A DNA stretch of 64,000 bases from a virus (IMGVR_UViG_3300021958_000044:1-64000), one strand, 5' to 3'. Positions 2,122 to 24,900 are shown, counted from the first letter of the stretch. Numbers and translations: made by a program. Notes: generated from the letters alone by a model not told the origin.

Positions 2122-2487
2122 TTAAACAGTCAGTGGATCCACTGGTTTATGATCGTCTTTTAGAGAAACAATTTTTCTATGTGACTCCCAACGATTATTT
2201 CGACAAATAATATCTATCTCATCTTGCTTTATATCATTTATGCAAGACAGTGCTTTGAGTGATTTGGCGTAAGTAATGAACCATAAAGTATTTTGATCTA
2301 GCAATCTTGTTTCTGTTATACCGTGAAAACCTTTTGCTTGTTGTTTTCTATTTCTAAAGTGGTCATTGATTAATGGATCCATTATTAGTAATTCACAGTA
2401 AGCATCATCTGGATCTTGAAAGGCATTCCAGTATGTTTTATACTCTTCTATAAGCGCATGCTTAAAATCGTATCTTAAATCTTTCAT
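2122..2487 (-). CDS. Hypothetical protein (121 aa)
   Basis: ORF with ATGA overlap with the upstream stop; no recognised motif. Confidence 0.65.
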   Translation of the reverse strand: MKDLRYDFKHALIEEYKTYWNAFQDPDDAYCELLIMDPLINDHFRNRKQQAKGFHGITETRLLDQNTLWFITYAKSLKALSCINDIKQDEIDIICRNNRWESHRKIVSLKDDHKPVDPLTV

Positions 2488-3236
2488 TCTGCAGATGTAA
2501 TCTCTTCAACAATATCGTCCCAAATATTTACGTCGTATACAACAAATCCTAATGTAATTCTAGGTCCTCCATAAGCAGAGTGCCACATAATTCTATTGTG
2601 TTCTTGCTTCTCACCATAGTAACCTAATTTGCAATGCCATCCATCTTTGTCTTGTAGATGAACTAATTTAGTGTCTGGATCTGGCATTATGGATCCTGGC
2701 TTCTCATCAGTAGAATCTAAATGTCTCCAATATCCTTTACCATCGCTCCAAGTGAATAGACAATTATATCCAGGGACATTCCAATTAGTATGCCATGCAA
2801 TATAACCATCTTCAGGATAGAACATCTTTAACGCACAGAACTTATATCCAATGTAAGCACCCAATGTGTCATCAAGTTCTTCAGATTTTTCTATGTACAT
2901 TCGGATGGCGTCTTTTTCTGCTTGTGTGAATCTATCACCGTCTTCAGCCAACACTCTTTGCAAAGTAGGAGCATTCATATCATAGCCATAGCTGTCAGGA
3001 GGATATCCGTCATGAGTGTCAGCAGGCATACTTTTCAAACATTCTATAGATGTAGAGTATTCTGGACGACCTTCTTTCATAAACTTACCTTTTGTTTTCC
3101 AATTAGGTAAAAGTTTATCGGGCCTGTTATTAATTATGAATTGTTGATACTCATCTAAAAGTTTCAAAAGATCCGTAGTTAGTGTCAAAACTTGTCTCAT
3201 GGATAATAAATCCCTCCTTAGTATATTCTGGATCAA
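2484..3236 (-). CDS. Putative Fe(II)/2OG oxygenase-like (cupin/DSBH) protein
   Basis: GYIAWHTNWN ... MWHSAYGGPRITLGFVV: two His and a distal Arg spaced as in 2OG oxygenases, but HxN instead of HxD/E. Start may be ATG at 3200. Confidence 0.5.
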   Translation of the reverse strand: MIQNILRRDLLSMRQVLTLTTDLLKLLDEYQQFIINNRPDKLLPNWKTKGKFMKEGRPEYSTSIECLKSMPADTHDGYPPDSYGYDMNAPTLQRVLAEDGDRFTQAEKDAIRMYIEKSEELDDTLGAYIGYKFCALKMFYPEDGYIAWHTNWNVPGYNCLFTWSDGKGYWRHLDSTDEKPGSIMPDPDTKLVHLQDKDGWHCKLGYYGEKQEHNRIMWHSAYGGPRITLGFVVYDVNIWDDIVEEITSAE

Positions 3237-3984
3237 TTGTGTAATGTAAAACTGATTTTTCGGATCCAGGTCTCAATTCAGTTTCTTTATAACCAGTAAC
3301 AAAGTTATACTTAGCATCGTTTGGCATTCTTTTAATGTCTACATTCAATTCTGGATTCTCATATAGAGCCCTCCAAAAAGCAAATGTGTCCCAATAAGCT
3401 AGCCCACTTGGAAAAGGTGATGTAGTTTGCTCCGTATGCCTTCTATACCACTTCAGCCATTCTTGCCATAACTTTTGAGTACGTTCATTTTTATTCCAAG
3501 CAAACATACCACAGTGCCATTGAAACTTATGAGCTTTACCTTGTCTATAAAGATCCATGTGCTCTGATCTGTAGTGTTCTAGTTCGGCACCTTTAATTCC
3601 TGGGCCAACTTGGTCGTCGTGAGTAAAATAAACTACCTTAGCATTATAAGGCCTATTCTCTGACATTACAACATCATGGTCGCCTAAATGATCCCAAACT
3701 TCTTCTATCTCATTGTTTAAGACAAATACGTCACAATCTAGGTAGATTGTTTTATCAAACGGCGATTGATCTAATGCCCATAGTTTAGTTCTTACGTGAA
3801 CAGGAACAGGGGTCACGATATGATCAAACAAGGGTCTATCTTGATCTCGTATCCATTCCTCATGAGTGTACACAGCAACTTTAGCATCCGGAACTTCATC
3901 TTTCAAGGATTCAACTGCCATCACCATGGCTTCGTAAAATGCTTTTGACATAGTGGACACTAATAAGTATCCTTTATTCTCCAT
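3151..3984 (-). CDS. GT-A fold glycosyltransferase (GT8-like)
   Basis: KLWALDQSPFDKTIYLDCDVFV (DxD motif), later WDTFAFWRAL and KYNF...VLHYT, as in GT8-like enzymes. Confidence 0.75.
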   Translation of the reverse strand: MENKGYLLVSTMSKAFYEAMVMAVESLKDEVPDAKVAVYTHEEWIRDQDRPLFDHIVTPVPVHVRTKLWALDQSPFDKTIYLDCDVFVLNNEIEEVWDHLGDHDVVMSENRPYNAKVVYFTHDDQVGPGIKGAELEHYRSEHMDLYRQGKAHKFQWHCGMFAWNKNERTQKLWQEWLKWYRRHTEQTTSPFPSGLAYWDTFAFWRALYENPELNVDIKRMPNDAKYNFVTGYKETELRPGSEKSVLHYTIDPEYTKEGFIIHETSFDTNYGSFETFR

Positions 3985-4513
3985 CTTTTTCAGACTCTTT
4001 AATGATGATCGCTACGCCGTATGCTAGAGCTTCTTCAGGATTAGTAGCTTGTCGTAATTTTCTTTTAAGATTTTTATGCTGAGTATTTTTAACTACATCT
4101 AAATCTAAGAAAGTGCTTTTGCGTGCCCATAACTCTGCTCTACGTCTCTCTCTGTTTTCATCCTTTGTTTTAAGATCAGCATCCTTAGCTTTTGCTTGTT
4201 GGATTGCAATCTCACGCTCCGTGTTATGATCAATCTCTTGATCTGTAAACTGTCTTTTAATATCCCTGTAAAGTGGATGTTTTTCATCCCTAGGAATATT
4301 TTGTTCTATCATTGCCATTCCATCTGGTCTAATCAGAACACAAGAAAGTTGATCTCTAGCATTATTAGTATAATGTGGATAGCAGATATTTGGTAAACTA
4401 GCGTCGACAGAAAATTCAGGAATAGTTAATCCTGATCTCTGCGGTCTCTCTGGTTTAGGTTGTTTTATATTGGCGCCCTCAGGCACCTTTGCTTCTTTTG
4501 CTTCTTCAGCCAT
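3974..4513 (-). CDS. Hypothetical charged protein (179 aa), possibly fibre-associated
   Basis: ORF with SD GAGGA and an upstream late promoter; helical charged C-terminal half; function inferred only from position. Confidence 0.65.
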   Translation of the reverse strand: MAEEAKEAKVPEGANIKQPKPERPQRSGLTIPEFSVDASLPNICYPHYTNNARDQLSCVLIRPDGMAMIEQNIPRDEKHPLYRDIKRQFTDQEIDHNTEREIAIQQAKAKDADLKTKDENRERRRAELWARKSTFLDLDVVKNTQHKNLKRKLRQATNPEEALAYGVAIIIKESEKDGE

Positions 4514-4568: not shown

Positions 4569-7500
4569 TTAAGCTACTCTTAACCACAATTTAACTGTAG
4601 AAATTGTTTCAGTTCCAGAGTCAACTGTTAATCCTGACCAGGCATTATCATAGTTTCCAAGGTACGTGGCAACATAATTTCCAATAAAAGTTCCTTCGTA
4701 TTGTTTTGTATATGTCTTAGTATACTGGCCAATATATGTTTTTGTATATTGGGTTGTGTAGTAACCAGTAAATACGCCTTCATATACTTTATCAAAATAC
4801 CCAGTAAACAATTGCGAGTACTGACCTTGATACAGTTTAGTGTATAGACCTACCCATACTTTTTCAAACTGACTGCTGTAGTATCCAGTAAACGATCCTT
4901 CATACTCTTTTGTATAAACTTTTAAGTAAGTACCGCTATACTGTCTTTGGAACACTCCTTCAAATGTTCCTTCATACAATCCAAGATAAGTTTTAGTGTA
5001 TTGACCAGAATAGTCACCGGCCCACACTTTAACAAAGTCGCCAACGTAAGCTCCTTCATATTGTTTTGTAAATGCTCCTTCAAATTGTTTGTTAAAAGCA
5101 CCTTCATATGTTTTACTAAACTGTTGACTGTATTGACCAATATATGTTTTTATGTAGTTGCCTGTAAATGCACCTTCGTATTGTTTTGTGTAGTTTCCAA
5201 GATACGTTGTGTTGTATGCGCCTTCGTATTGCTTGGTATACGTTCCTTCGTACACGCCTGTATACACGCCTTCGTATATTTGAGGTCCCTCATAAATTCC
5301 TATATAGTATCCTGTATAGATACCCGCATATGCTTTTTCATATGACTTATTATAGAACCCATTATAGTAGCCAGTGTAATCACCGTTATATGTTCTTGAT
5401 CCGGCCCATAGTTTAGCATATGCTTTAATATATGCTACTGAAACATATGTCTTATTAAAAGCGCCTTCAAAGTTGCCTGTATATTGACCAGCATATGTTC
5501 TGGATCCAGCATACTGACCTGCATATGCTTTTACGTATCCAGGTGCGTATGTTTTAGCATAATTTGTTCCATATTGGTCCGCATACGTTCTTGTACCAGC
5601 ATATTGCTTAGTGTAATTCTTATTAAATGTACCTTCATACTGTTTATTATATTGACCAGTGTATGTTCTTGATCCAGCATATTGCGCAGCAAATGTTCCA
5701 GAATAGAATAAGTTAAATATTCCTACGTATGCTCTTTCATAATTTTTATTATACGACTTAATGTAATCTCTTGTATAATTTCCTACATAGTTTTTGTTGT
5801 ATGCGCCTTCATACAATGCACTGTAGATATTAATATAATTTTTAGACCATAACCCTGTGTACTGCTTGAGATATTGTTTTGTATACACGCCCTCGTACGT
5901 TGCAGAGTAATTTTTGTTGAAAGATCCTTCATACAGAGCAAGATATTGTTTGTTGTATTGTCCAACATACGTTTTAATGAACAGTCCAGTGTAAGTTGCA
6001 ACATATTGCTTTGCAAATACTCCCTCATATCCTTTGTTATAGTTAGTATTGTATGTTCCAGCATACTCACCAGCATAGTTTGTTCCATATGTACCTGCAT
6101 AGTCAGCACCATATGATTTTGAGAAAGTGCCAGAGAATATGCCTTCATATTGTTGATTGTATATGCCTACAAACGTAGTGTTGTATACGCCTTCATATAA
6201 TTTAGTATAATTGGTACCATACGTTCCTGCATACTCGTTTGCATAATTCTTATTATAGGTACCTGCATAATCTGCACCATAGTTTGATGTATACGTACCA
6301 GTAAACGCGCCTTCATATTGTTTATTGTATTGTCCTGCATACAATTTTGCATATTGCTTAGCATATGTTCTGATCCAATTTTTTACATAGTTTCTTGTGT
6401 AAGTGCCACCAAATTGTCTTGAATAGTTACCAGTATATTGTTTAGTATAATTGGTACCATATTGCTTAGTATAGTTGCCAGAATAATCGCGAGTGTAATT
6501 ACCTGTATATTGTTTAGTATAATTGGTACTATATTGCTTAGTATAGTTACCAGAATAATCGCGAGTATAATTTCCAGTGTATTGTTTAGCATAGTTTGCA
6601 GTATAGTCTTTTGTGTAGTTAGTGTTGTATGTTCCACTGAACTGTCTGGCATAGTTGCCTGTATACTGTTGGGCATAGTTTGCTGTGTATGCTTTGGCGT
6701 AGTTTGTACCATAAGTTCCAGCAAACGTGCCAGTGTATTGGCCAGTATATTGCTTTAAGTAATTGGTACCGTATTGTCTTCCGTAGTTTGTACCATAAGT
6801 TCCAGCAAACGTGCCAGTGTATTGGCCAGTATATTGCTTTAAGTAATTGGTACCGTATTGCCTGTCATAATTTGATGCGTAAGTTCCAGCAAATTGTCTT
6901 GCGTAGCTTCCTGCATACTGCTTTAAATAGTTAGTACCATATTGTCTGTCATAGTTACTAGTGTACGTTCCAGTAAACGTATTATCATAATACCCAGTGG
7001 ACGTAACTGAGAAATGTCTGTTCCAATTAACATTATAGTTTGTTACGTATGTTCCACTAAATGCTCTATCATAGTTTCCTGTATACTGCTTTAAATAGTT
7101 AGTACCATATTGTCTGTTATATCTTTTTGTATAGTTACCAGTATACGCTCTAGTATAGTTTCCTGTATATTGTCTAGTATAGTTTATACTATATTGTCTA
7201 TCATAGTTGCTTGTATACTGTCCAGTAAACCCTTTAGTATAGTTAATAAGTCTTGCGTAACTTACTGTCCCTGGACCGTTATATTCCATTTCACCATTTA
7301 GTATGTTACTACCGGCAATCCAACCCTTTGGAAAAATATCGTTATTATAGTTTACTGCTCCCCCAGCATAGTATTGGGTGCTTAAATAGAATGGACCTGC
7401 TTTTGCAGCTGCAAAAGCAACATCACGAGCATAGTTAATGCTACCCGTATAGTTTGTTCCAGGACCGAGGAAGAATTGCTCTCTCTGATAATTTGTATTA

Positions 7501-10500
7501 TATGTTCCAGAGTATTGTCTAGCATATCTAGCAGTCCATTGCTTTAAGAAGTTAGTCGCATATTGGCCGGAGAAGGTAGTATTATAAGTTCCTGCATACT
7601 GTCTATCATATGCCTTTGTCCATTGAACTAGATAGTTAGTTCCATATGTTCCAGCAAACTGTCTTGCATAGTTTCCTGTATATGCTTTTTGCCATGCTTT
7701 TGTCCAAGTCTTAGCCCATTGTTTTACATAGTTACCAGCAAATGCTCTTACATAGTTTCCTGTATATGCTTTTTGATATCTTCTAGTCCATTGAACGAGA
7801 TAGTTAGTTCCATACTGCCCACTAAATGCTCTATCATAGTTTCCTGTATATTGTCTAGTATATCTTCTAGTCCATTGAACGAGATAGTTGGTTCCATACG
7901 TTCCAGCAAATAACCTATCATAATTTCCAGTGTATTGTTTAAGATATTGTTTTGTCCATTGAACAAGATAGTTGGTTCCATACGTTCCAGCAAACAATGT
8001 ATTATAAGCACCAGTGTATTGTTTAAGATATTGTCTTGTCCAAGCTACTTGCCAGTTAGTCGTATATTGGCCAGTAAACGTTCTATCGTAAGCGCCTGTA
8101 TAACTTTTTAAATATTGTTTTTGCCAAGCTACTTGATAGTTAGTTGTATACTGTCCAGAGAAAGTAGTTTGATAAACACCGCCATATAGTCTGGAATATT
8201 GCTGTAGATAATTTGTAGCATACTGTCCAGAGAAAGTAGTTTGATAAACACCGCCATATAGTCTGGAATATTGCTGTAGATAATTTGTAGCATATTGGCC
8301 TGTAAATGCTCTCTCGTATAAACCAGCATATGCTTTTTGGAAAGATGCTGTATAATCTTTGTTATAATTAGCAGTGTATAATCTTTCGTAATTACCGCCG
8401 TATGTTTTTGTCCACTGGCTTACGTATTGTCCCACATATGCTTTTTGCCAAATTTTGGCATAGTTGCCTGTGTATGCTTTTGTGTATAATCTTTGATAGG
8501 ATCCAGTGTACTGTTTAAGATATTGTCTGTTCCATTGGCCAGTGTATGATTTTACCCAGTTACCAGTATACGCTTTAGTCCACAGACTTGTGTACAGACC
8601 AGTATATTGATTGATCCAAATTTTTGCATATAAGCCAGTATACTGCTTTAACCAGTTTCTACTGTAGATGCCCGCATAAGCCTTTTGATACAGTTTTGTG
8701 TAGATGCCTGCATATTCTTTTGTATAGTTCTTATTCCAGCTGCTAATATAGTTAGCAGTGTATGCTCCCTCATATGTTTTGGTCCACAATCTATCAAATT
8801 GGCCAACATACGTTTTTGTATATGCTTTTACATAAGCACCAGTATAAGCCTTTTGGTATTGTTTGGTGTAATTAGTTTCGTAGTTTTTTATGTAATCTTT
8901 AGCATAAGTCTTGACATACGCGCCTACGTATGTCTTGGTGTAATTCCCGGTGTATAACCTATTGTAATCGGTTGTATACGTTTTTACGTAAGCACTTGTG
9001 TATGCGCCCTCAAAAGACCCAGCAAGGAAGAATCCCGTGTAGAATTCCGTTGTACTAGCATATGTGCCCTCGAACGTACGAGTGCCTTCATATTGAGCTG
9101 TATACTGGCCAGTATATGATTTTAAATAGTTTGTGCTATATTGTCCATTGTAAGTTCTAGATCCTGCATACAGCTTTGCATATTGGTTGACATAGTTTAC
9201 ACCTAGATAAGTTTTATTAAAGTATCCTGTGTATTGTCCTTCATAGGTTCTGGTACCTGAGAACTGTCTTGAAAATATGCCAATGTAAGTTTTGGTCCAA
9301 TTACCGACATATGCTTTTTGATATTGATCTGCATACTGGCCAGCATATGTTCTGGATCCTGCATATACTCCTTCATAAGCGCCTTCGTATGTTTTTACAT
9401 ATTGCTTAGTAAACGTTCCTTCATAGTTGCCAGCATACACGCCTTCAAACTGTCTTACGCCTGTATAGTATCCTGTGAACGTACCCTCATACTGTCCGGT
9501 GTATGCTTTCTCATATTGGCCAACATATGTCTTAGTGTAGTTTCCAATATAAAGTTTTTCATACTGGCCGACGTATACGCCTGTGTATGTTTTGTTAAAT
9601 GCGCCTTCGAATGTTCCAGTATATTGTTTTACATATTGGCCTATAAAAGTTCCAGTGTATTGGCCCAAGAAAGTTTTGGTATACAGTCCTAAGAAAATTC
9701 TAGAGTAAGTATCAGAAAAATATCCAGTAAACGTTCCTTCGTATTGTTTGTTGAACGCTCCTTCAAATTGTCTACTATATTGACCAACATAGGATTTTAA
9801 ATATGTTCCTACATACTGGCCTTGATATTGTTTTGTATAAACGCCAACATAGACGCCTTCAAATGCTCCTGTGTATTGTGCAACGAAGGATCCCTCATAT
9901 TGCTTGGTATAGTTTCCTGTAAACGTTCCTTCGTATTGGCCTACATATGTTTTTGTATATTGGCCAGTGTAAGCACCTACATAAGTTTTTTCGTATTGTT
10001 TTGTAAATGCACCTTCATACTGCTTATTATATGCTTTTTCGTAAATACCAATGTAAGCGCCAGAATATGTTTTGTCAAATGCACCTACATACGTAGCAGC
10101 ATACTGCTGACTTGAAATAGTGTTTCTTGTATCTGTAACATCATCACTAACTAACACCCAAGTCTCACCCGGTGCAGCTGGATTAGTAGAAGCTAATCTA
10201 TATGTTCCAATTCCCGTATCTACTATTTGATTTCTTAATCGAGCTGCAAGAGTTTTAATCTCTGCATCTGACATTTCTTGAATTGAGCTGCTGTTTAGTC
10301 TTACAGGTCTAGTTACAGAAGGACTAGAAACGCCTTGGTCTTTTCTCCATAGCTTGTATACTGTGGTACCTTGTTTGTTTGTATCTGTTACGCTGTATCC
10401 TGAATCACTATAAAGACTTGCATTTGGATTTACTTCAGATAACCAATATGATCCCAAACCATTAGAAACTAGGTTAGAAAGAGCTCTTGAAATAATGGTA

Positions 10501-10850
10501 GAAGATAGGTTGTTGCTATGCTCTGCTGCATATCCATTATCGTCGACAAATAAAGGATACACAATAGACGACTCCGACGTAGATGTTAAGTTTTGTTTTA
10601 ACGTATACGTACTGGTTGATATTGCATTTTGCGAAGGGTGAAATCCTACCACCTCTGTTCTGGTAGTATCAGAAAATGATCCCGCATCCGTTCCGTCACC
10701 ATTTATATTAATGGTTCCTGATGCAGTTAATGAGACTGAAAATTCTGTAAGAACCTGATGAACAGCATAGTCCATCTCGGCATCTTGCATCTCTTGTAAA
10801 CCAAGAAATGTACTGCCAACAGTTTCTTTTAATCTTAGAGGATTACCCAT
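4569..10850 (-). CDS. Giant Tyr/Gly/Thr-rich tetrapeptide-repeat protein, probable tail fibre (2093 aa)
   Basis: About 250-aa N-terminal domain with duplicated QEM(Q/S)DAE motif; about 1750 aa of [YFW]-x-x-x repeats split by a non-repeat core (res ~1122-1204); short C-terminal tail; located in the fibre cluster. Confidence 0.8.
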   Translation of the reverse strand: MGNPLRLKETVGSTFLGLQEMQDAEMDYAVHQVLTEFSVSLTASGTININGDGTDAGSFSDTTRTEVVGFHPSQNAISTSTYTLKQNLTSTSESSIVYPLFVDDNGYAAEHSNNLSSTIISRALSNLVSNGLGSYWLSEVNPNASLYSDSGYSVTDTNKQGTTVYKLWRKDQGVSSPSVTRPVRLNSSSIQEMSDAEIKTLAARLRNQIVDTGIGTYRLASTNPAAPGETWVLVSDDVTDTRNTISSQQYAATYVGAFDKTYSGAYIGIYEKAYNKQYEGAFTKQYEKTYVGAYTGQYTKTYVGQYEGTFTGNYTKQYEGSFVAQYTGAFEGVYVGVYTKQYQGQYVGTYLKSYVGQYSRQFEGAFNKQYEGTFTGYFSDTYSRIFLGLYTKTFLGQYTGTFIGQYVKQYTGTFEGAFNKTYTGVYVGQYEKLYIGNYTKTYVGQYEKAYTGQYEGTFTGYYTGVRQFEGVYAGNYEGTFTKQYVKTYEGAYEGVYAGSRTYAGQYADQYQKAYVGNWTKTYIGIFSRQFSGTRTYEGQYTGYFNKTYLGVNYVNQYAKLYAGSRTYNGQYSTNYLKSYTGQYTAQYEGTRTFEGTYASTTEFYTGFFLAGSFEGAYTSAYVKTYTTDYNRLYTGNYTKTYVGAYVKTYAKDYIKNYETNYTKQYQKAYTGAYVKAYTKTYVGQFDRLWTKTYEGAYTANYISSWNKNYTKEYAGIYTKLYQKAYAGIYSRNWLKQYTGLYAKIWINQYTGLYTSLWTKAYTGNWVKSYTGQWNRQYLKQYTGSYQRLYTKAYTGNYAKIWQKAYVGQYVSQWTKTYGGNYERLYTANYNKDYTASFQKAYAGLYERAFTGQYATNYLQQYSRLYGGVYQTTFSGQYATNYLQQYSRLYGGVYQTTFSGQYTTNYQVAWQKQYLKSYTGAYDRTFTGQYTTNWQVAWTRQYLKQYTGAYNTLFAGTYGTNYLVQWTKQYLKQYTGNYDRLFAGTYGTNYLVQWTRRYTRQYTGNYDRAFSGQYGTNYLVQWTRRYQKAYTGNYVRAFAGNYVKQWAKTWTKAWQKAYTGNYARQFAGTYGTNYLVQWTKAYDRQYAGTYNTTFSGQYATNFLKQWTARYARQYSGTYNTNYQREQFFLGPGTNYTGSINYARDVAFAAAKAGPFYLSTQYYAGGAVNYNNDIFPKGWIAGSNILNGEMEYNGPGTVSYARLINYTKGFTGQYTSNYDRQYSINYTRQYTGNYTRAYTGNYTKRYNRQYGTNYLKQYTGNYDRAFSGTYVTNYNVNWNRHFSVTSTGYYDNTFTGTYTSNYDRQYGTNYLKQYAGSYARQFAGTYASNYDRQYGTNYLKQYTGQYTGTFAGTYGTNYGRQYGTNYLKQYTGQYTGTFAGTYGTNYAKAYTANYAQQYTGNYARQFSGTYNTNYTKDYTANYAKQYTGNYTRDYSGNYTKQYSTNYTKQYTGNYTRDYSGNYTKQYGTNYTKQYTGNYSRQFGGTYTRNYVKNWIRTYAKQYAKLYAGQYNKQYEGAFTGTYTSNYGADYAGTYNKNYANEYAGTYGTNYTKLYEGVYNTTFVGIYNQQYEGIFSGTFSKSYGADYAGTYGTNYAGEYAGTYNTNYNKGYEGVFAKQYVATYTGLFIKTYVGQYNKQYLALYEGSFNKNYSATYEGVYTKQYLKQYTGLWSKNYINIYSALYEGAYNKNYVGNYTRDYIKSYNKNYERAYVGIFNLFYSGTFAAQYAGSRTYTGQYNKQYEGTFNKNYTKQYAGTRTYADQYGTNYAKTYAPGYVKAYAGQYAGSRTYAGQYTGNFEGAFNKTYVSVAYIKAYAKLWAGSRTYNGDYTGYYNGFYNKSYEKAYAGIYTGYYIGIYEGPQIYEGVYTGVYEGTYTKQYEGAYNTTYLGNYTKQYEGAFTGNYIKTYIGQYSQQFSKTYEGAFNKQFEGAFTKQYEGAYVGDFVKVWAGDYSGQYTKTYLGLYEGTFEGVFQRQYSGTYLKVYTKEYEGSFTGYYSSQFEKVWVGLYTKLYQGQYSQLFTGYFDKVYEGVFTGYYTTQYTKTYIGQYTKTYTKQYEGTFIGNYVATYLGNYDNAWSGLTVDSGTETISTVKLWLRVA
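6435..6590 (-). repeat. Imperfect 72-bp (24-aa) tandem duplication in the C-terminal arm of the 2093-aa gene
   Basis: atattgtttagtataattggtac recurs at 6435 and 6507. Confidence 0.85.
6698..6860 (-). repeat. 84-bp (28-aa) tandem duplication, 79 bp identical, in the C-terminal arm
   Basis: 6698-6776 equals 6782-6860; the same period is visible at 6921 and 7089. Confidence 0.9.
7786..8120 (-). repeat. Imperfect 84-bp (28-aa) tandem array in the N-terminal arm
   Basis: gtccattgaac at 7786, 7870 and 7954, and gtccaag at 8038. Confidence 0.85.
8149..8292 (-). repeat. Perfect 72-bp (24-aa) tandem duplication in the N-terminal arm
   Basis: 8149-8220 is identical to 8221-8292 (GQYATNYLQQYSRLYGGVYQTTFS x2). 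Confidence 0.95.
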
Positions 10851-14617: not shown

Positions 14618-17600
14618 TTATTCTTCCTCTACTCTTTCCAATTCTCTTACTCTACCAGATAACTCTTTAACTGCTTCAATGAGGAGCGGTATCAAACTAT
14701 TGTAGTTAACGGTTTTGTATCCTCGGCTATTTATGGTTACAGCATGAGGTAAGATTTGTTCTACCTCTTGTGCTAGCACACCATAATCCTTAGTTCCCTC
14801 TCTAAAGTCTCCAATAGCAGAATTCCACTCAAACTCATAACCACCAATTGACTCAACTTTATCTATTGCTGTGTCTATTGTTAATACATTAGACTTAAGT
14901 CTTTGGTCTGAACTAGAAGCAGCGACTAAATCATCTCTTGCAATAATGTTGTCAGCTATGACATATGACGCAGTTGAGTTAACAAATACGTTAGCATATA
15001 TCGATGAGTTACCAACATTAACTTTATCAGCAAGATATACTTCGCCCCACTTGTTAGATGAAGTACCTAAATCTCTAGTAGAAGTATCTGATATAAAATG
15101 CGTATTGACAACAGCATTTGCAAAATTAACTACTAGTCGATCGTTGCCGTTACCAAATTGTACTGATGCACTGTATGTAGAGTTACTTGTTGCAGCTAAG
15201 AACTGAGTAGTATCGGTGACATTTAAATTAGCTGTTCCTAATTCTGTAGCTGTCAATGTAGTGTCATCTGGTAACACTGCAGAGCCTGTTATTATTAAAT
15301 TAGTAGCATTGATTGCGTCTACAGCAAATGCAGTTTTACTGGTATTGGCAGTTAAGTTAGCATTTACAGAACTGTTACCAAAGTCAAGCTGTGTATCTAC
15401 TTGTAATGTTCCATCAACACTTACGTTAGCTTGGAACGTAGCATCGTCCTCAACATTTAATGTACTGTTAAGGTCTGATGCTCCTGCAACTGTCAATGAT
15501 CCATCAGTATCAATATTACCTGACGAAGCAATAACTGCATTTGCAGTAGAGTTACCAACTGTAATTGCACCGTCGAATTGTGATGTACCAGTGACATCTA
15601 GGTTGCTACCAATAGAAGCGCTGCCAACTATTGCTGCTGAAGCTGCATTTACTTCTCCGCTAATGTCTACGTCTGACCCAGCTGTAATGTCGCCTGATGC
15701 GTTTAATGTTGTTAGCTGGCCAGCAAATCTCTTTTCGCTTGTACCAAGAATTCTACCGTTAGCACTTGGAATAATACCTACTGTGCTGTTACCACCAATG
15801 GATCCTAATAGTTTAATTATATCGGAAGAAGCATCACCAATATCTGCACCACCGTTTAATGTTGTTTTTCCAGCAACTGTTAATGTTCCATCAGTATCAA
15901 TATTACCTGCAGAGGTAACAACAGCATTAGCGCTAGAATTACCAATTGTAATTTTGCCGTCAAACTGTGATGTGCCTGTAACGTCTAAATTAGTGCCTAC
16001 GTTTGCGGATCCAGTAATAACAACATCGCTACCTAAGAATGCTTTTTTATCTACGCCAAGTCCACCTGCAACTTTCAATGCTCCAGTTGTGTCGCTTGAA
16101 GATTCTGTTGTATCAGAAATATTTACAGCGCCACTGAAGTCACCAGTGTTAGCACTGAATACCCATCTGTGAGTAGCATCACCAAGTACCACATTATTAC
16201 CATGTAGTGGTAGAACGCCTATTGAACTGTTACCAATTGCTGATCTTATTACTAATCTGTCTTCTGCATGAGTTGCATTTGGTACTGTATTTCCAACAAT
16301 AATTTCTCTATCGTCGCCTGAATTTCTTGTCTGTACTTTGAATGCTACTGTTGAAGAATTAGATACTTCAAAAGGGTATCCAACATTAGCACTTCCTACA
16401 GCGTTTACAAACCCATCGATTTGAGCATTACCTGTAGCTGTTAAATTTACAGTTCTAACATGGTTTCCATATACATCCCATCTTAAAGCTGTCGTACCTA
16501 TTGATTGATCTGCATTAGAATTAGGAACAATGTTAGTAGCGACTCTACCATTAATTGATATGTCATCTCCAACTGCATCCCCCAATCCTACTGTTCCGTT
16601 TAGTAATGTTGCACCGGCTACCGTTAATGTACCGTCTGTATCAATATTACCTGTGTTTGCTATTACTACGTTGGCTGTTGAATTACCAATTGTTAGAGTT
16701 TGATCTATTTGTACATCTTTATCAAAGTCAGCATTGCCTTGTGTGTTTAATGTATTAGCCATTACGACAGCACCTAACAAATTACTTGTGCTGTCTACAT
16801 CTAGTGTTCCGTCTGTATGAATTCCTGATACTGATAAAGATGTATTAGCAGTGCTGTTACCAACTGTAACATCGTCATCAGCAATTTTTACTCTGTTATC
16901 GCCAGTAGAAACATGGATCGTGCTACTTACGTTAGCTGTTCCTGTTACGTTTGCGCCACCTTTTGCTCTTAGTAGTCCATCAACGTTTGCTTGGTCTTGA
17001 AGGTGTGTTGTTCCTTTAACAAACAGCTGTCCATCAGTATCCATATTACCGTTAGCCGATACTACAAGATTTGCTGTTGAGTTACCGACTGTAATAGTAT
17101 CATCAAATTGAGATGTTGAATTTACTTCTAATGTGCTTTCAAGATTTGCAAATCCTGTTACTGTTAAAGTGTTAGAGAATGATGCTGCACGTAATACATC
17201 CAGCTCGCCATTAAGATCAGTATTATTAGCAACAGTTAATGTTGATTTACCATCTATGGCTCCATGGACAGTTAACTTCTCTCCAATAGTTGCAGATTTT
17301 ACAACACCAACACCACCTGATATTCTAGTACCGCCAGTAGTATTTGATGTAGAGTTTTGCGTGTTTTCTAATGTAGTAATTCCAGATACATTTAACGTGT
17401 TGTTAAGGTCTGATGCTCCTGCAACTGTTAATGTACCATCAGTATCAATATTACCTTCTGTAGAGATGTGCGCATTTGCAGTAGAGTTACCAACCGTAAC
17501 AGTTTGATCAACTTGAACATTACCATCTACGTTTACATCAGAATCAAAGTCTGCGTTCTCTTGTACGTTAAGTTTGTCAGTCAATACCGTATTAGAGTTG

Positions 17601-18718
17601 ACTGTTAATAAATCTGAGTTAGCATCACCAATTGTAACGCCAGTACTTGTAATATTTACGTTAGTAGAAGTTACGTATACATTAGCGCCTGATAGCGCAA
17701 CGTTAGCGGCAATATTTGCATTTGTAGCTGTACTGTTAACTACTAAGTTCGAGCTAATGTTTAGCTCTCCAGAACCTATAGAGGTATTAGTAGAATCAAT
17801 TGTTGTTAAAGCATTGTCGATGTCTACTTCACTGTTAAAGTCATTTAACGTAGCATTTGACTGGAAAGTATCTACATTAGCTGTTAGTGTGACGTTATTA
17901 GAACTAAACTCTACAGTGTCTGCATGAGCATAGACATTAGCATTAAATACAGTATTTGAATCTACATTCAACTCACCACTAGCAATATATGTGTTTGTTG
18001 AATCTATTGTTGTTAGAGCATTGTCAATATCTACGTTACTGTTAAAGTCGTTTAATGTAGCGTTTGATCTTAATACGTCAGCATTTGCAGTAACGATTAC
18101 ATTGTTTGAACTTATTTCAAATCTGTTAGCGTGTGCATGAACATTAGCATTGAATACTGTATTTGAATCTATATTAAGTTCGCCACTTGCAATGTAAGTG
18201 TTTGTTGAATCTATTGTTGTCAGTCCATTATCAATATCTACGTTAGCATTGATATCGACTTGTGTGTTAAATCTGTTTCTTGTTGCGTCAGATATAAAAT
18301 CAGAGACATTGCCGTTTGCAATGAATACTGTATTAGTTGTGTTAGCTAAGATCTGGACGCCAGTGTTTGTAAAGTAAACATTAGCCTGTGCATATACTTC
18401 TGAACCATATGTACTGTTTGCAAAGAAAACTGTGTTGGTAGAAATTATTAAGTTGGCAGTAGGCGAACCAGTACCATAGTCTGTCGTGTTACCTGTGGCA
18501 CCTTGGAGCTCATCGAAAACTTTTAATGTATTAGCGCCAAAGAAACCATTTACATAACCATTGCCTATTGTCTCTGCACCTTGTGTATTTCCAAACGGAG
18601 CAGTCGTAACTACATACTTTTCCATATCGTATGTAATTCTGTTTGTTAGGTCTACCCATTCTCTAAACGTATCTGACGATGGGGTTATATTTGCACTTGA
18701 ATAAGCATTACTAGCCAT
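14618..18718 (-). CDS. Long tail fibre with C-terminal intramolecular chaperone (peptidase S74-like), 1366 aa
   Basis: N-terminal DTFREWVDLTNRI; internal beta-rich repeats; C-terminal SSDQRLKSN...YEFEWN...YGVLAQEVEQILPHAV...VNYNSLIPLLIEAVKELS. Confidence 0.85.
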   Translation of the reverse strand: MASNAYSSANITPSSDTFREWVDLTNRITYDMEKYVVTTAPFGNTQGAETIGNGYVNGFFGANTLKVFDELQGATGNTTDYGTGSPTANLIISTNTVFFANSTYGSEVYAQANVYFTNTGVQILANTTNTVFIANGNVSDFISDATRNRFNTQVDINANVDIDNGLTTIDSTNTYIASGELNIDSNTVFNANVHAHANRFEISSNNVIVTANADVLRSNATLNDFNSNVDIDNALTTIDSTNTYIASGELNVDSNTVFNANVYAHADTVEFSSNNVTLTANVDTFQSNATLNDFNSEVDIDNALTTIDSTNTSIGSGELNISSNLVVNSTATNANIAANVALSGANVYVTSTNVNITSTGVTIGDANSDLLTVNSNTVLTDKLNVQENADFDSDVNVDGNVQVDQTVTVGNSTANAHISTEGNIDTDGTLTVAGASDLNNTLNVSGITTLENTQNSTSNTTGGTRISGGVGVVKSATIGEKLTVHGAIDGKSTLTVANNTDLNGELDVLRAASFSNTLTVTGFANLESTLEVNSTSQFDDTITVGNSTANLVVSANGNMDTDGQLFVKGTTHLQDQANVDGLLRAKGGANVTGTANVSSTIHVSTGDNRVKIADDDVTVGNSTANTSLSVSGIHTDGTLDVDSTSNLLGAVVMANTLNTQGNADFDKDVQIDQTLTIGNSTANVVIANTGNIDTDGTLTVAGATLLNGTVGLGDAVGDDISINGRVATNIVPNSNADQSIGTTALRWDVYGNHVRTVNLTATGNAQIDGFVNAVGSANVGYPFEVSNSSTVAFKVQTRNSGDDREIIVGNTVPNATHAEDRLVIRSAIGNSSIGVLPLHGNNVVLGDATHRWVFSANTGDFSGAVNISDTTESSSDTTGALKVAGGLGVDKKAFLGSDVVITGSANVGTNLDVTGTSQFDGKITIGNSSANAVVTSAGNIDTDGTLTVAGKTTLNGGADIGDASSDIIKLLGSIGGNSTVGIIPSANGRILGTSEKRFAGQLTTLNASGDITAGSDVDISGEVNAASAAIVGSASIGSNLDVTGTSQFDGAITVGNSTANAVIASSGNIDTDGSLTVAGASDLNSTLNVEDDATFQANVSVDGTLQVDTQLDFGNSSVNANLTANTSKTAFAVDAINATNLIITGSAVLPDDTTLTATELGTANLNVTDTTQFLAATSNSTYSASVQFGNGNDRLVVNFANAVVNTHFISDTSTRDLGTSSNKWGEVYLADKVNVGNSSIYANVFVNSTASYVIADNIIARDDLVAASSSDQRLKSNVLTIDTAIDKVESIGGYEFEWNSAIGDFREGTKDYGVLAQEVEQILPHAVTINSRGYKTVNYNSLIPLLIEAVKELSGRVRELERVEEE
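17750..18250 (-). repeat. 207-bp (69-aa) tandem repeat, about 2.5 copies, in the 1366-aa fibre
   Basis: VDIDN(G/A)LTTIDSTNT unit recurs at 18231, 18024 and 17817. Confidence 0.85.
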
Positions 18719-18719
18719 C

Positions 18720-18938
18720 TTACTTTACCCCCGATAAACTTCTTAACATTTGTTTGATTTCGCCCATATCTTGTTTTAGAGAATCTATTTCATTACAAAT
18801 ATTTGCCACTTTGTTCTTCTCGTTCCTTTTAGCTTTATATTGCGCATACGCAGCCGCATCATTATTTATAAGTGCCATGTTGGATGGATCCCTAAGAAAT
18901 CTTTGATCTTCTGTTTCTATTAAAATTTTCTTAGCCAT
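18720..18938 (-). CDS. Small coiled-coil hypothetical protein (72 aa)
   Basis: FLRDPSNMALINND...IDSLKQDMGEIKQML pattern typically found after VrlC-type genes in T4-like phages. Confidence 0.75.
   Translation of the reverse strand: MAKKILIETEDQRFLRDPSNMALINNDAAAYAQYKAKRNEKNKVANICNEIDSLKQDMGEIKQMLRSLSGVK
18863..18870 (-). promoter_or_regulatory. Candidate late promoter TATAAATA inside the 72-aa gene
   Basis: Exact consensus overlapping codons L-I-N, about 145 nt upstream of the 1366-aa fibre gene. Confidence 0.55.
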
Positions 18939-21900
18939 TATAATGATACCGCTATTGCTCTATAATCTTGAACATAAGGATTAAGCGCTGTACTTGTAGC
19001 TGTTAGTACAATTTTAATTGCCAAATACTTATAACCGATATATTTCATATCGTTTTGGTTATAGTAAGTTGCTTCAAATGCAGAAGGAGCTTTAGGATCC
19101 CTAAACACTTGATTCTTATATTCTTCAGTTACTTTTTGAATTGCTGTGCCTTGAGGATCATCAAAGTCTGGTTCATCACCAACAACAATTTCTGTATCGC
19201 TATTGACTGCTGTTACCATTGATGCGAAATAATTGGTATCATTGTTTAGCAAGTTTATTTTAATTAAATCTCCTACTTCAAGATCAGATGTAAATGCAGT
19301 GCCTGTACCAGTCAATGTAGTATTACCATTGACAACAGTTACCGTGCCGTTAATGCTTGTAGCCTCAGGTGCATTTCCAAATTCATATGTATATTCTATT
19401 ACATCGCCCCTGTCTTTAGCAGAGCTAATTTTAGTAGCATTTGCTCCAGTGGATTGTAATAATGACCACCTTGTATCTTTAAATGGTGTTGGATCTTCGC
19501 TGTTCAGTACTTTAGCATAAACTTTAACATCTGTACCAGCTGGCTTATAAGCGTTTACATAAACTTTGATATCTTCTGCATCTAAGCCTTCTGCTAGCTC
19601 AATTGTTCTTGAAACATATTTTGCTGAAGCAGAACCTTGATCTGTTATATACTCATTAGTCAAAACGTTATTAATAATGTTTTCGTATATTAAACATTCT
19701 TGAGATTGGAGGTCTATACTTGCGCCGATAAAGTTATCTTCACTGGTTAGCGTTTGAAGAATATTTAAAGACTTGTTACCACTGTTGTTTACAATCTCAT
19801 TAGATTTACTCATTACCTTAATAGCAGAATCACTATAGAATCTATCATTTGTTATAAGAAGTTCATAACTAGAATCGCCAGTATCATCACTCAGACGACC
19901 TTTAATATGCGCATTGTGCATTGTGCCTTCTGGTACATTTCTATACAATCTTGGCTCAAGATAGCTAATGTTAGTATCTACTACTTGATTGATTACAGCA
20001 TTTGCTACGCTGTCCACGCCAATTATTGTATCGCTGTTTGCAAACAAGAATGTGCTATTGGTTGCATTACTATCATTACATTGAATAGTTTTTGTATTAG
20101 CATCAATTTGTACAAATTCTGCAACTGGCGTAAACATAAAGTTACCAGTTGAGTCTGTAAAGCTCGGTGCGCCTCTTAATGTAATTGTACTAGAGTTTGC
20201 AACAGATGCAACTTCTACAACGTCAAATGTAGAACTGTTGCCTGTTAACACAATTTTACTACCAGCACTCAATCCTGTAACAGCAGAGAAATCTGATCCG
20301 CCACTTGTTGTAGAACGTATTGTACTGTTTCCTTTGTTGATAACAATGTTACCTGCAACATTTGCAGCTAACTTAAACACTTCTTCACCAACAGTAAAGT
20401 TTCCGTTAATGTTTGTTGTGTTTGATTGGAAGAACTCATAGTCTTCATTTTCTGTTAACACTGTAGCTCTCTGAGAAGCAAACACAGCTGCATACAAAGT
20501 AAACTTAAGGTCTTCATCTACATACTCTGTCCATGTTCTGTTGTTTGTAGATAAGAACATAGTACCTTGACCCCAGTCTTGGTTGTTAACAATGTTTGTT
20601 CTAACATCTTTCTGGCCAGCTTTAGCTGTCCAAACTTTATACTCTGGGCTGTTTCCATCTGGTAAAATAACTACAACATACTCTCTTCCAGCTTCGACCA
20701 TAACCGGTGAAGTAAAGGTAAACGTTGTTTTTGTAGCACCATTTGTTGATGCAGTGATCTCATTAGCATTTAAGTGAGTTCTACTAAATGGTAAAACTTT
20801 AGATGCTGGGACGCCGTTTTCAGTTGATCTAATTTCTACTGTACATCCTCTTCTTGCATCTTTGCCAGCAAAATAAATATCAACCGCAGTAATATAACCG
20901 TCCTTATATCCATTGAACTGTTGTGAATCAATTAAGAACGATTGTGCTAATGGATCGTCTTCATCTCTAAATCTACGCTCTCTTTGACCGTCTGTCCATG
21001 TGTCAGGCGGCTGAGGCGGTGGAGCTATTGGAGGAACAGTTGGAATCGGTATTGTTATAGGCGGACCTGGAACCAATACTGTTACAGGTGGTCCTGGAAT
21101 TGTAGGTCCAGGAACTGGAACAGGAACAGGTACTGGGTTAGGAACCGGTATAGGGTTTGGCACCGGCGTAGGTCTTTCAGGGCCAGGTACTGGAACAGGA
21201 ACAGGTACTGGGTTAGGAACCTCAATATGATTTTCAATTACAGTCACCTCAGCTGGAGGTAACGGTGTAATTACTTGCTCAACATTTCTTGTTCGTTGAG
21301 TTATTGTTGTTTGTCTTTGTGATGCTCTTGGTAATGCTGATCTAGTAGAAGTTATAACATCGCCTTTGTTTACAGTAAAGTTATAGCAATTGAATTTTGC
21401 TGTGGCTTCTGAAACTGAATCACCTAGTAGCCCAATATCAGACGCATCGCTGACTACAAACTCTCTTTCTCCTGCAAAGAAAGTATTAGAAGGAATTCTA
21501 TAAATTCCTGAAATACCACCTGAGCTATTTGCTGTAAGAGAATCGCCAAATGCCCCTCTACTTCTAATCATTCTTCTTGCTCTTGAAGAAGACAGTCTTC
21601 TCTCTGTAGCTACAGCATCAAAAGGATTAGACACGGATGCGGGTCTACAGTTACTTGTTTGATCTTTACCGTCAAAATAAACGTAGTGTCTCATTCCTGG
21701 TCTCAAACCAGTAGCTACGAATCTAATTTCTGTTCCAGGAATATAAGGCTGGAATGAAATGTCTGTAACAAAATCACCGACTTTTCTAGTAGTTGTTCTT
21801 GCTCTAGCACTTAATGTCGTGGTCGTTTGTCTTATTCTTTGACTTCGTACTATTTCTACTTGGTTTGTAACTTGTGTATCTGTAGGAGTCGATGACACAA

Positions 21901-24900
21901 CTCTTGTATTTGTATTGTCCTGTATTACTTCACTGCTTGTAAATTGTTGAGGAGCAATTTTGTTCAATTCGTCAATCAACGCTAAAGTAGAGCTAGCATT
22001 ATCAATGTTAATCTGTACAGCAGATTCAGGTGATTTCTTATTGTCCACGCCTGCAAGGTAATCTGGGAACAATCGTACTGTACCATTATAAGCCCATAGT
22101 GCAGAAGTAACTCTTCTTTGTCTTGTAGCTCTTTGCTGTATAATGATGCTTCTATTGAAATACCTAGGAAGAATTAAGTCGTTACTTCTTGAAATATTAG
22201 TGCCGCTCTTAAATCTCATTTTAATGCTGTAGTTTTCAAACTTAGAAACCAATAGGTCTCTTGCAGCATCAAATCCCGCTTTAAATTCTGTGTCTAGTGG
22301 ATTACCTGTAGTAAACGATGCAAAGTTGTCTACAATAAATCCATTCTTAAATCTGTTAGTTGTAGGATCGGTTCTTCCAGGAATTACAGCATCAGTAGTA
22401 AACTTCTCTAAGAAATTTAATGATGAGTAATATTCTAGATTAGTAACCCTATCATCAATTGACCTAATGTCTTCCATGGTGTATCTCTTAAGCTGAGTAG
22501 CTTTGATTATTACGCCATAATCTGGTCTTCTATCTGCTCTTGCAGTAGGCTGTGCTAATGAAGGATATACAGGAACATCTAAAGATGCTAGCTGCATTGC
22601 ATTTTCTGGTAGAGGAGGAAGTTTAGGATTAACGCTAGGAACACCCTCTACAACAAATAAACCGCTTGACTCGACAATGATTCTATCTTTTCTTGGCAGA
22701 TAGTATTCAAAGCTACCAGACCAAGATGTGTCTGGAGCTCCAATTTTTGATACGTCATCTAATGTAGATGTGGCAGAAGGGTTAATGGTAAACGATCCGT
22801 CTAACGTACCTTCTATTACTGCAGTGTTAGAAAGCTGAGGTCTAAAATCTAAATGATTTCTAAGATCAACTTCTCTACCTGTTTTTGGTGATACAAACAT
22901 TGGTATCTGTTGTGTAGTGACCGCTGAAGTATTTGCTGTATTTTCATCATCGATAGGATATGAATTAAAATTAAAGAATCCTGTTCCAGATCCTTTCTTG
23001 AAGTGTCTGAAAGTTACGGCTAATTGATCTCCGCTAGACAATGAAATTGTTGAACCAGGCTTTGTTCTTAGCTTAGAAAGACCATAAATTGAATCAGTCT
23101 GCCCATTGTTAATTTCAAATTGATCAGTTACGTCAGTTGTAAATGAATCGTAACCACCGCCGGTGCCTTGATAAACAGACACTAAAGCATGTCCGTCTAC
23201 TACACCAAGACTCCAAGGTCCTGATGTTCCACCAGTATTATTAGATGTATCAATACCCACTTCAGTTGTAACATAGCTCTTAAGCACAGCATTTGCAGCA
23301 GTATCTTTTACATTGACTAAAACATCAACAGGAGTTGTTCCATTAATACCGATATTTGTTGAGATAGTCATTGTAGTGCTAGAGCTCGACACGACTACGT
23401 TTGCATCAGATCTATCGTTCAGAGATAATGGATAATTCTTTTGATAGGTCTGCATCATATTCATTGCAGACATACTACCTGGAGCAGAATCTACAACTAC
23501 AGCGTCACTATTAGCTACTTTTCTAATTTGGAACGGCCCGTTTGTTACAGTTGTGTTTGCTAGGTAATATAAGTCCCCTACGTATACTGAAGATGTGTCT
23601 CCAATACCAGTAACCACTGTAGTCGTAGCGTTGCTTGTAGCCGCAGTAGATGTTACATTAGTGGTTGCATTTGCATTCTGCTGTGGTAAGATAATAATTT
23701 CTTTTTCTTGTGTGTTCGTTAATGTGCCATCACCATAGTTAAATTGCTCATTACCTGTTACGGTTAATGTTATCTCACCAGCAGTACTAATTGTATTAGA
23801 CACTTTGCTCTTATAAACATAAGATGCGTTATTACCAACAGACTTAATACCTGATTGACCTAAGTTAAATAATTGTCCTTCTGCAAACGAATCTTTTAGT
23901 TTTGCAGTTGCTGCTTCAATGTCAGCTACACCAATTTTAGTAATATTAGTCTCAGCACCTGCTGCACTATAATCTGAACCAGAATAGTGAACAATAGAAT
24001 TTACGTGCTTAGAAAAGGATTTACCTTTTTTCATCTCTATATCATAAAGGTATAGGTTGTATATGCTATCAAAATTGTTATTGTTATTATCTTGACACTC
24101 AATGTTTCTGACTCTTGCAGTACCAACGACACTTCCTGTTGTTCCATCATAGGCTACAGAAGTGTTTGATACAGCTGGATCTGAAGCATTTGCTGAGTTA
24201 TGAGCATTAAAAGTTGCATCAGTCAGCAAGACCATGTCATTAGTTTCATGGCCAAACTGTCCTATAACATTGTCTACTTCAACATAATTTCCGTACGTAA
24301 GCGCTACTTCTTGTGAAGTAACGTTTGCACTCACTGTTGCTTTTTTAATTGGTAGTCTTGTTGTATTGTTTGTCTCTACTCTATAACCTTTAACATATGC
24401 TACACCAGCGCCAATCTGCGCATTGATATGTGTAGTGTTTCCTGAAATTTCTTCTGTACCAATAGCAAATGGATCAACTACATAATCGCCAGATTCTTCA
24501 TATGTTCGTCTTGCTATTTGATCGCCTAATCTATTAAGAACTGCTTTTTGGTTTAATTGAATTGGTCTTCCACCTTGGAAAGATACAATAGATAAGAAAT
24601 TATTTGAAGACTGAGCATCAGATGTCGTGTTTACGACTAACGTAGGCGTAAGTCTTAATCTGTCAGCGCCCGGCGCATTTTCGTTATTGAAGCCAGATGC
24701 ATTGTCTAATAACGAGGTGTCAACAGAGCTATTTATAATAGCCTCTGCAGTTTCAATGCCTACAGATACTTCGTCGGGAGAACTTGTATATTTTGTTACA
24801 ATAATATTTTGTTCTTCAAATCTTTGGAAATGTCCTTTCTGGAAAATAATACCATCATTTACTGTCATCAAGAATGAGTTACCAACAGTATTAAACTGTG

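Follow-up and report, generated by a model that had tools for sequence, protein, structure and literature searches.

Almost all solved phage fibres are, to our knowledge, parallel trimers, and the known fibre designs are the coiled coil, the beta-helix, the beta-spiral and the collagen-like rod. The triple beta-helix of T4 gp5C and gp12 is parallel, is made of three chains with small hydrophobic residues inside, and has no need of mirror symmetry. The T4 gp37 needle (PDB 2XGF) is reportedly an intertwined homotrimer of about 15 nm with His-x-His iron sites, and the stalk of the streptococcal antigen I/II adhesin SpaP, a bacterial protein, is said to consist of an alpha helix and a polyproline-II helix wound around each other over about 50 nm. 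Tryptophan zippers are peptides of 12 residues, and the single-layer sheet of Borrelia OspA and its engineered extensions span a few nanometres; neither belongs to a virion. Here we describe a gene in a 64,000-nucleotide stretch of viral DNA (IMGVR_UViG_3300021958_000044:1-64000, hereafter the window, in whose coordinates positions are given) that encodes a protein of 2093 residues. This protein is probably a virion fibre of another kind, in which a single chain runs out, passes through a tip domain and folds back on itself, with about 870 residues in each arm of the hairpin and its tail resting on its base.

The gene (window 4569-10850, on the minus strand like the other features described here) is an intact open reading frame (ORF) of 2093 codons. 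It comes from an 80,990-base IMG/VR contig that is about 48% complete. The encoded protein starts with an N-terminal base domain (residues 1-245; 10116-10850) and continues with an outbound arm (residues 250-1121; 7488-10103), a non-repetitive core of 82 residues with GPG and AGG motifs that would be the distal tip (residues 1122-1203; 7242-7487), a return arm (residues 1204-2071; 4638-7241) and a C-terminal tail (residues 2072-2093, ending in TISTVKLWLRVA, with the stop codon; 4569-4637). The base consists of two tandem alpha/beta modules, each with an (L/I)QEM.DAE helix, and ends in a conserved GxTW...DTR strand that contains W231. It looks internally duplicated, with a strand followed by the (L/I)QEM.DAE helix at residues ~18-45 and again at ~188-210. 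The arms, which carry a net charge of +90, are built from (Y/F/W)-x-(G/K/R/T)-x tetrads.

The spacing of aromatic residues is extremely regular. There are about 470 aromatic-to-aromatic steps, and 402 of these are exactly four residues; the regular runs extend over residues 250-1121 and 1204-2071, and the core between them is irregular. The register is interrupted by breaks. In the outbound arm, two-residue (+2) breaks occur at residues 462-468, 496-502, 530-536, 561-567, 587-593 and 597-603, and in the return arm at 1724-1730, 1750-1756, 1780-1786, 1815-1821 and 1853-1859. Each arm also has a one-residue (+1) break, at 548-553 (YLGVNY) and 1802-1807 (YVSVAY). The break zone of the outbound arm (residues 458-613; 9012-9479) thus contains five shifts of the Y.G.[RQ].Y type, the +1 bulge and an irregular patch at 597-613, and that of the return arm (residues 1712-1859; 5274-5717) contains five +2 shifts and one +1 bulge.

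This pattern is mirror-symmetric. The autocorrelation of aromatic positions in mirror coordinates peaks at i+j = 2317 with a match of 0.89. Shuffling the order of the spacings gave a mean match of 0.42 and a maximum of 0.54, and none of 500 shuffles reached the observed value (z = 14). A preliminary description of the gene had proposed just such arms, with an aromatic at every fourth position around a non-repeat core, and this is confirmed; the symmetry of the breaks is not reproduced by randomizing the spacings. Its index sums of 2316-2321 are correct for the midpoints of the breaks but not as pairing sums, which are in fact 2321, 2320, 2321 and then 2325. Two of its details have to be corrected. 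GVNY at 551 had been paired with APGY at 1770, where the spacing is 4 and the register is unbroken, and the one-residue break near 1805 had been left without a partner, when its counterweight is the +1 break at 548-553.

The symmetry extends to individual residues. A global alignment of the outbound arm with the reversed return arm contains 866 pairs and just 8 gap residues, with 211 aromatic:aromatic pairs and 19 mismatched aromatic positions. Along the arms the pairing sum shifts at three places only. Each of the two one-residue bulges moves it by one (2321, 2320, 2321), and beyond the irregular patch N597-613/C1712-1716 it is 2325. The two +1 breaks lie ~30-38 residues apart in mirror coordinates, and it is between them that the sum is 2320. 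The last aromatic of the outbound arm (1121) and the first of the return arm (1204) add up to 2325, the distal pairing sum. The +2 breaks introduce no distortion. Both strands read Y.G.R.Y.G.Y, with R500 facing Y1821 and Y502 facing R1819; at a +2 break the aromatic ladder steps, on the two strands together, to the next face position.

A further signal comes from the residue at the middle of each tetrad, which is Gly in ~40% of cases and otherwise mostly Lys, Arg or Thr. The Gly/non-Gly barcode of the outbound arm recurs, reversed, in the return arm. Among 198 regular tetrads the middle positions pair as G:G in 71 cases and non-G:non-G in 112, with 15 mixed, giving a phi of 0.84 (in 5000 permutations phi had a standard deviation of 0.072 and reached 0.27 at most). 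The agreement holds by segment: at i+j = 2321 phi is 0.74 for residues 250-462 and 1.00 for residues 468-597 (n = 15), and at i+j = 2325 it is 0.83-0.94 for residues 613-1121. When single sums are scanned over the whole arm, the top peak of the window protein is 0.45 at +8, with side peaks at multiples of 28 residues (for example 0.42 at -48). Mutual information between residues paired at i+j = 2317 was no better than at shifted controls, because the true sums are 2321 and 2325. A local mirror dot-plot of aromatics alone was non-specific owing to the aromatic periodicity.

At the DNA level, the fibre gene contains no inverted repeat, although direct 84-nucleotide repeats are present. As reverse-complement DNA could not in any case encode a reversed peptide, the symmetry must have been selected at the level of the protein. 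The direct repeats D2 and D4, with a spacing of 84 nucleotides, reveal a super-repeat of 28 residues, or seven tetrads, in the distal parts of both arms (window 7488-8130 and 6380-7250). A supertwist of the ribbon, or the period of its packing, may lie behind this super-repeat.

The protein belongs to a large family. A phmmer search with the N-domain found 301 clusters at 50% identity with E <= 1e-3 (171 at <= 1e-10), and the domain was found on 171 IMG/VR viral contigs. Complete family ORFs encode 273-3134 residues, plus one of 3347 residues in phage C48C1 (OQ984149; 31% identity, E = 5e-16), which is the sole family carrier in the phage collection searched. The C-terminal motif T.ST.KLW.R[TV]A ends 66 of the 67 complete ORFs from the loci and is present in 92 of 150 listed representatives, namely the full-length ones; the C terminus of the window protein, TISTVKLWLRVA, matches it. 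We tested 124 full-length members (289-3134 residues) for mirror symmetry: 40 have z > 3, and in 32 the observed symmetry was never matched by shuffles. The remaining members are short or have other repeat types, so that the test has low power for them. In the largest class of members, adding up the positions of two conserved Trp residues, one at the N-domain's end and the other in the tail, gives the mirror axis with an offset of 0 or +1.

Arm length varies enormously, and the two arms vary together. Half-spans across the family range from 12 to 1555 residues, and both arms lengthen in step, so the equal arms expected of a hairpin are indeed found in homologues. The close relatives L002 (2838 residues) and L004 (3134 residues) have the same base as the window protein and a break zone at identical N-arm positions. 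Both of their arms are longer than those of the window protein, by ~372 residues in L002 and ~520 in L004, and their barcodes are mirrored throughout, with a phi of 0.57-0.94 in every segment and a single peak in the whole-arm scan (remaining sums scatter with a standard deviation of ~0.1). Because of the repeats, BLAST could not place the insertions and deletions between orthologues. At the other extreme, short members are visibly symmetric about a tight Gly-rich turn, such as YYSGRNYGSY, with arms of 20-40 residues and turns of 4-8. Members with other break types follow the same logic. The breaks of L048 read PAN three times, TAP three times, SRN twice, the turn, SRN twice, PAN three times, TAT twice and TAP, which sets PAN opposite TAP or TAT and SRN opposite SRN. 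In L043, an AKN break lies opposite TSA.

Some members are more elaborate. The return half of the C48C1 homologue (L001:7107-17150) is interrupted by several globular domains, and the repeats of this protein are Y.R.R.S.Y-type units in which alternate aromatics give way to Arg. A stretch of ~75 residues (KTRHRSYLYY...NFSGQY) is duplicated exactly in tandem, which may be real or an artefact of assembly. The 415-residue cluster representative P0010 apparently has two turn motifs, QRFFAGFSGGFF and AAFFAGFTIGAF, and may be a double rather than a single hairpin. In L024, L033, L026 and L045 both arms are partly replaced, symmetrically, by Pro-rich units such as NPAGPSYS, which are unlikely to be plain beta strands.

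Structure prediction is consistent with the fold-back in a short relative. The AlphaFold2 model of L043 (425 residues, 65 homologues) has a mean predicted local distance difference test (pLDDT) score of 79.7. The base is predicted with pLDDT > 90, and the tail is docked on it at pLDDT 85-97. The tail of the window protein is accordingly expected to form a strand beside the last part of its N-domain. The strand pairs assigned by DSSP are 245-276/390-423, 288-294/372-378 and 306-331/334-360, with sums of 665-668, in agreement with the axis of i+j = 666 derived from the sequence, which sets W245 opposite W421. Of a parallel beta-solenoid with local contacts, which had been named as an outcome that would speak against a hairpin, there is no sign.

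Taken together, these data lead us to propose the following architecture. Residues 1-245 would fold as a globular base, from which the chain would leave as a single beta strand (250-1121) that reaches a small tip domain (1122-1203) at the distal end. A second strand (1204-2071) would then return antiparallel to the first, paired with it residue by residue, and the last 22 residues would dock onto the base. One face of the resulting ribbon would present a cross-strand aromatic pair at every fourth residue, with G:G or K/R/T:K/R/T pairs between, and the other face would be lined by Thr, Gln, Asn, Ala and Glu. Two features would set the register, namely this pattern and the shifts that match between the arms. 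Fully extended, at 0.33 nm per residue, such a stalk would be ~290 nm long. Arm length would be the evolvable variable of the family, and the protein would likely serve the baseplate as a filament for reaching or tethering.

Could the same sequence features arise from a different structure? The mirror statistics would be identical if the arms paired between chains, as in an antiparallel homodimer or domain-swapped pair in which the N arm of one chain lies head to tail with the C arm of a second, and the window protein does turn through an 82-residue core rather than a tight turn. We nevertheless regard a homodimer as very unlikely. The short members, with their brief arms and tight Gly-rich turns, can only be hairpins; in the AlphaFold2 model the tail sits, at high confidence, on the N-domain of the same chain; the conservation of both base and tail is best explained if the two meet within one subunit; and a rod with attachment domains at both ends is a poor fit to a baseplate fibre. 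Still harder to credit is a parallel homotrimeric beta-helix or solenoid, in which the period-4/8 repeat would resemble the gp5C octapeptide and the breaks would be symmetric by coincidence. Such a structure provides no reason for reverse-order matches between residues ~100 to 1800 apart, and leaves both the equal growth of the arms in relatives and the locking of the axis to base and tail unexplained. Parallel offsets yield local direct-repeat matches only (best 0.36-0.60 on 73-203 positions), against a global mirror phi of 0.84, and no Pfam fibre repeat matches the protein. The precedent of the solved phage fibres, generally parallel trimers, does speak for this arrangement, as does the eight-residue flavour of the repeat (Y.G.Y.K.). 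The out-and-back hairpin is preferred because it alone explains the reversed barcode, the matched shifts, the equal arm growth, the locked axis and the tight turns together. The hairpin put forward in the preliminary description is supported by ~870 mirrored pairs, arm lengths that co-vary, an axis locked to two Trp residues and the predicted docking of the tail.

It is quite possible that the hairpin is correct and that the functional unit is a closed bundle, such as three chains in a six-stranded tube or rope. Free beta edges running over hundreds of nanometres should, on general grounds, aggregate; T4-like baseplate proteins are usually trimers; and the 28-residue super-repeat could reflect supercoiling. 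On the other hand, the base domain is confidently folded as a monomer in the model, and neither face of the ribbon, one with Lys and Arg among its aromatics and the other with Glu, resembles a buried core. A three-copy complex prediction for a 312-residue member (45-row alignment) scored 0.00 and makes no call either way. Several points weigh against the proposed hairpin itself. We know of no precedent for a ribbon of only two strands whose edges stay free over 290 nm. The non-Gly middle pairs are mostly K:K, K:T, K:R and A:K, so that 49 paired middle positions set positive charge opposite positive charge. Like-charged pairs are unusual in an isolated sheet and hint at further partners or packing; together with the exposed edges, the Lys pairs suggest further packing or ligands. 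Among the window protein, L002 and L004, 18 of 19 Gly/non-Gly differences are one-sided and 1 is co-varying, and therefore the barcode appears to be inherited and tolerated, with no co-evolution demonstrated at the scale of close orthologues. Finally, pLDDT in the middle of the L043 arms is only 45-50, and a single-sequence AlphaFold2 prediction of the window core (residues 1010-1315) had a mean pLDDT of 37.5 and gave no usable model.

The family appears to be new, as the preliminary description suspected: it has no Pfam, PDB or PHROG name and no paper. The fibre protein matches no Pfam family at E <= 0.01, and its one PHROG match is phrog_15773, of unknown function (5.6e-4). The N-domain has no match in NCBIfam, and its profile has none with E < 0.4 among PDB sequences; a word-indexed protein search with residues 1-250 returned nothing in the 1151-3663-residue length band; and we found no description of the family in the literature. 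Similarly, Foldseek found nothing at E <= 1e-3 for the L043 model in the PDB or BFVD. The best score of this model in VIA wide was Z 6.8, to MACPF/MABP beta domains, in a range that the tool calls commonplace, and T4 gp11 scored Z 2.5. A search of the ESM Atlas with the same model returned only its own unnamed family (TM-score 0.63-0.76 by matched model).

The surroundings of the gene are those of an uncultured marine phage of the T4 type. It lies within a minus-strand block of T4-type tail genes, in a baseplate and fibre module with homologues of gp5 (carrying OB and trimerisation domains), gp6, gp7, gp8, gp48 (the tube cap) and gp53. The gp6 homologue is nearest to those of Caulobacter phage Cr30 and Sinorhizobium phage phiM12 (38-39% identity), and those of pelagiphages and cyanophages are more distant. 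The block also encodes a 1366-residue fibre with a C-terminal S74 intramolecular chaperone (window 14618-18718) and a 2243-residue giant protein of the DUF4815/phrog_358 type (18938-25669). This one phage would therefore have very large appendage proteins in a row, the two just named and two hairpin proteins, counting the upstream neighbour described below. A 109-residue ORF (1740-2069) matches phrog_3304, annotated 'L-shaped tail fiber protein assembly' (3.7e-20); homologues of ~50% identity lie downstream of the family gene, a few genes away, in L010, L044, L055 and L064.

Directly upstream is P0153 (10856-14287), whose 1143-residue product has the same aromatic tetrads (residues 30-800) followed by a C-terminal Gp38-type adhesin; residues 911-1136 match Pfam PF05268 (41.4 bits, above the cut-off of 25; E = 1.8e-10). 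The protein probably forms another hairpin, shorter than that of the fibre, with residues 33-330 paired with 795-500 (i+j = 822-825) around a core of ~150 residues. The Gly pattern gives a phi of 0.70-0.76 at a sum of 824 and 0.47-0.53 at 823, the top two of 81 sums. The aromatic-only mirror test was not significant for this protein, and the signal comes from the Gly pattern alone. As the adhesin follows the return arm, beside the protein's own N terminus, the turn region would face the phage. P0153-like genes are located upstream of the family gene in L002, L003, L004, L010, L055 and L064, where they accompany long-armed, large-core members and not short ones. The fibre may carry this adhesin-bearing protein, and we speculate that the two proteins could be joined core to core as a two-segment fibre.

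Three genes follow the fibre gene in all seven of the examined loci that include downstream sequence (L002, L004, L006, L010, L044, L055 and L064; relatives share 25-78% identity, and the L004 set is cut by the end of the locus). The first (3974-4513) encodes 179 residues, and 150-180 across relatives. The second (3151-3984, 277 residues) looks like a GT-A-type glycosyltransferase. It matches GT8 weakly (7e-5, 23.0 bits, under the cut-off of 24.3), has a DxD motif that is invariant in 7 homologues, and its PDB matches are all to glycogenin, likewise weak (E 0.08-0.4); other members match GT2 or Nucleotid_trans weakly. The third (2484-3236, ~240 residues) has an invariant WH.N...H...R.T motif and one member that matches phrog_61 (E = 0.007), and may be an enzyme like the 2-oxoglutarate-Fe(II) oxygenases; it has no match in Pfam or the PDB. 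The three genes may form a cassette that modifies or matures the fibre. In most members of the family the arms are almost uncharged and rich in Thr, Ser and Tyr, and glycosylation-type modification is therefore a reasonable, if speculative, lead. Conserved enzymes that are encoded as a cassette and may act on a virion protein deserve attention in their own right.

If the hairpin is correct, these phages use a building principle unlike the known fibre designs, namely a self-complementary chain whose halves recognize each other in reverse order. Length would be tunable from a few nanometres to hundreds of nanometres with base and tip unchanged, and marine T4-like phages would possess a new class of organelle, and an abundant one, for reaching their hosts. 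The family would also be a natural test case for protein folding, in which register has to be found over ~870 residue pairs, and possibly a length-programmable nanofilament for protein engineering. The most far-reaching version of the idea, a single-chain ribbon without a core and ~1 nm thick, with a peptide pairing code, lengthening by matched insertions and modification or maturation by the three downstream genes, strikes us as unlikely in its entirety. Were it true, the ribbon would extend up to 290 nm here and ~460 nm in the 3134-residue relative, and be the longest beta hairpin known. Its code would place aromatic opposite aromatic and Gly opposite Gly, with matched shifts of the ladder, and it would allow the stalk to grow or shrink in evolution through insertions matched between the arms. 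Its modification by the downstream genes would be comparable to the hydroxylation and glycosylation of collagen.

How does the fibre compare with known systems? By fold, the best match of the base and hairpin root is the C-terminal beta-prism of MABP/MACPF proteins (8b6v, 2qp2, 3tow; Z 5.9-6.8 over 109-118 residues), a commonplace score with 7-15% identity and no evident functional link. With the triple beta-helix of T4 gp5C and gp12 and its VxGxxxxx octapeptide, the window fibre shares a short-period repeat containing Gly and an origin in phage tails, but its antiparallel register over ~870 pairs has no counterpart at parallel offsets. Tryptophan zippers and the OspA single-layer sheet resemble the proposed ribbon in being antiparallel sheets of 2-3 strands that lack a hydrophobic core and are stabilised by cross-strand aromatic pairs on one face; the window fibre, by contrast, is natural, and its element would be hundreds of residues long and variable in length. 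SpaP has the same overall plan, a single-chain stalk that runs out and back, with paired repeat regions of matching length and a tip far from the anchored termini, whereas the stalk proposed here is a beta ribbon and belongs to a phage. The T4 gp37 needle likewise takes its chain to a distal tip and back, so that strands of its N-proximal and C-proximal parts run antiparallel next to each other. Yet the window protein has no sequence or Pfam similarity to gp37 and none of its His-x-His iron repeats (there is 1 His in 1821 arm residues). Its arms of ~870 residues would instead take their register from the pairing of aromatics and glycines.

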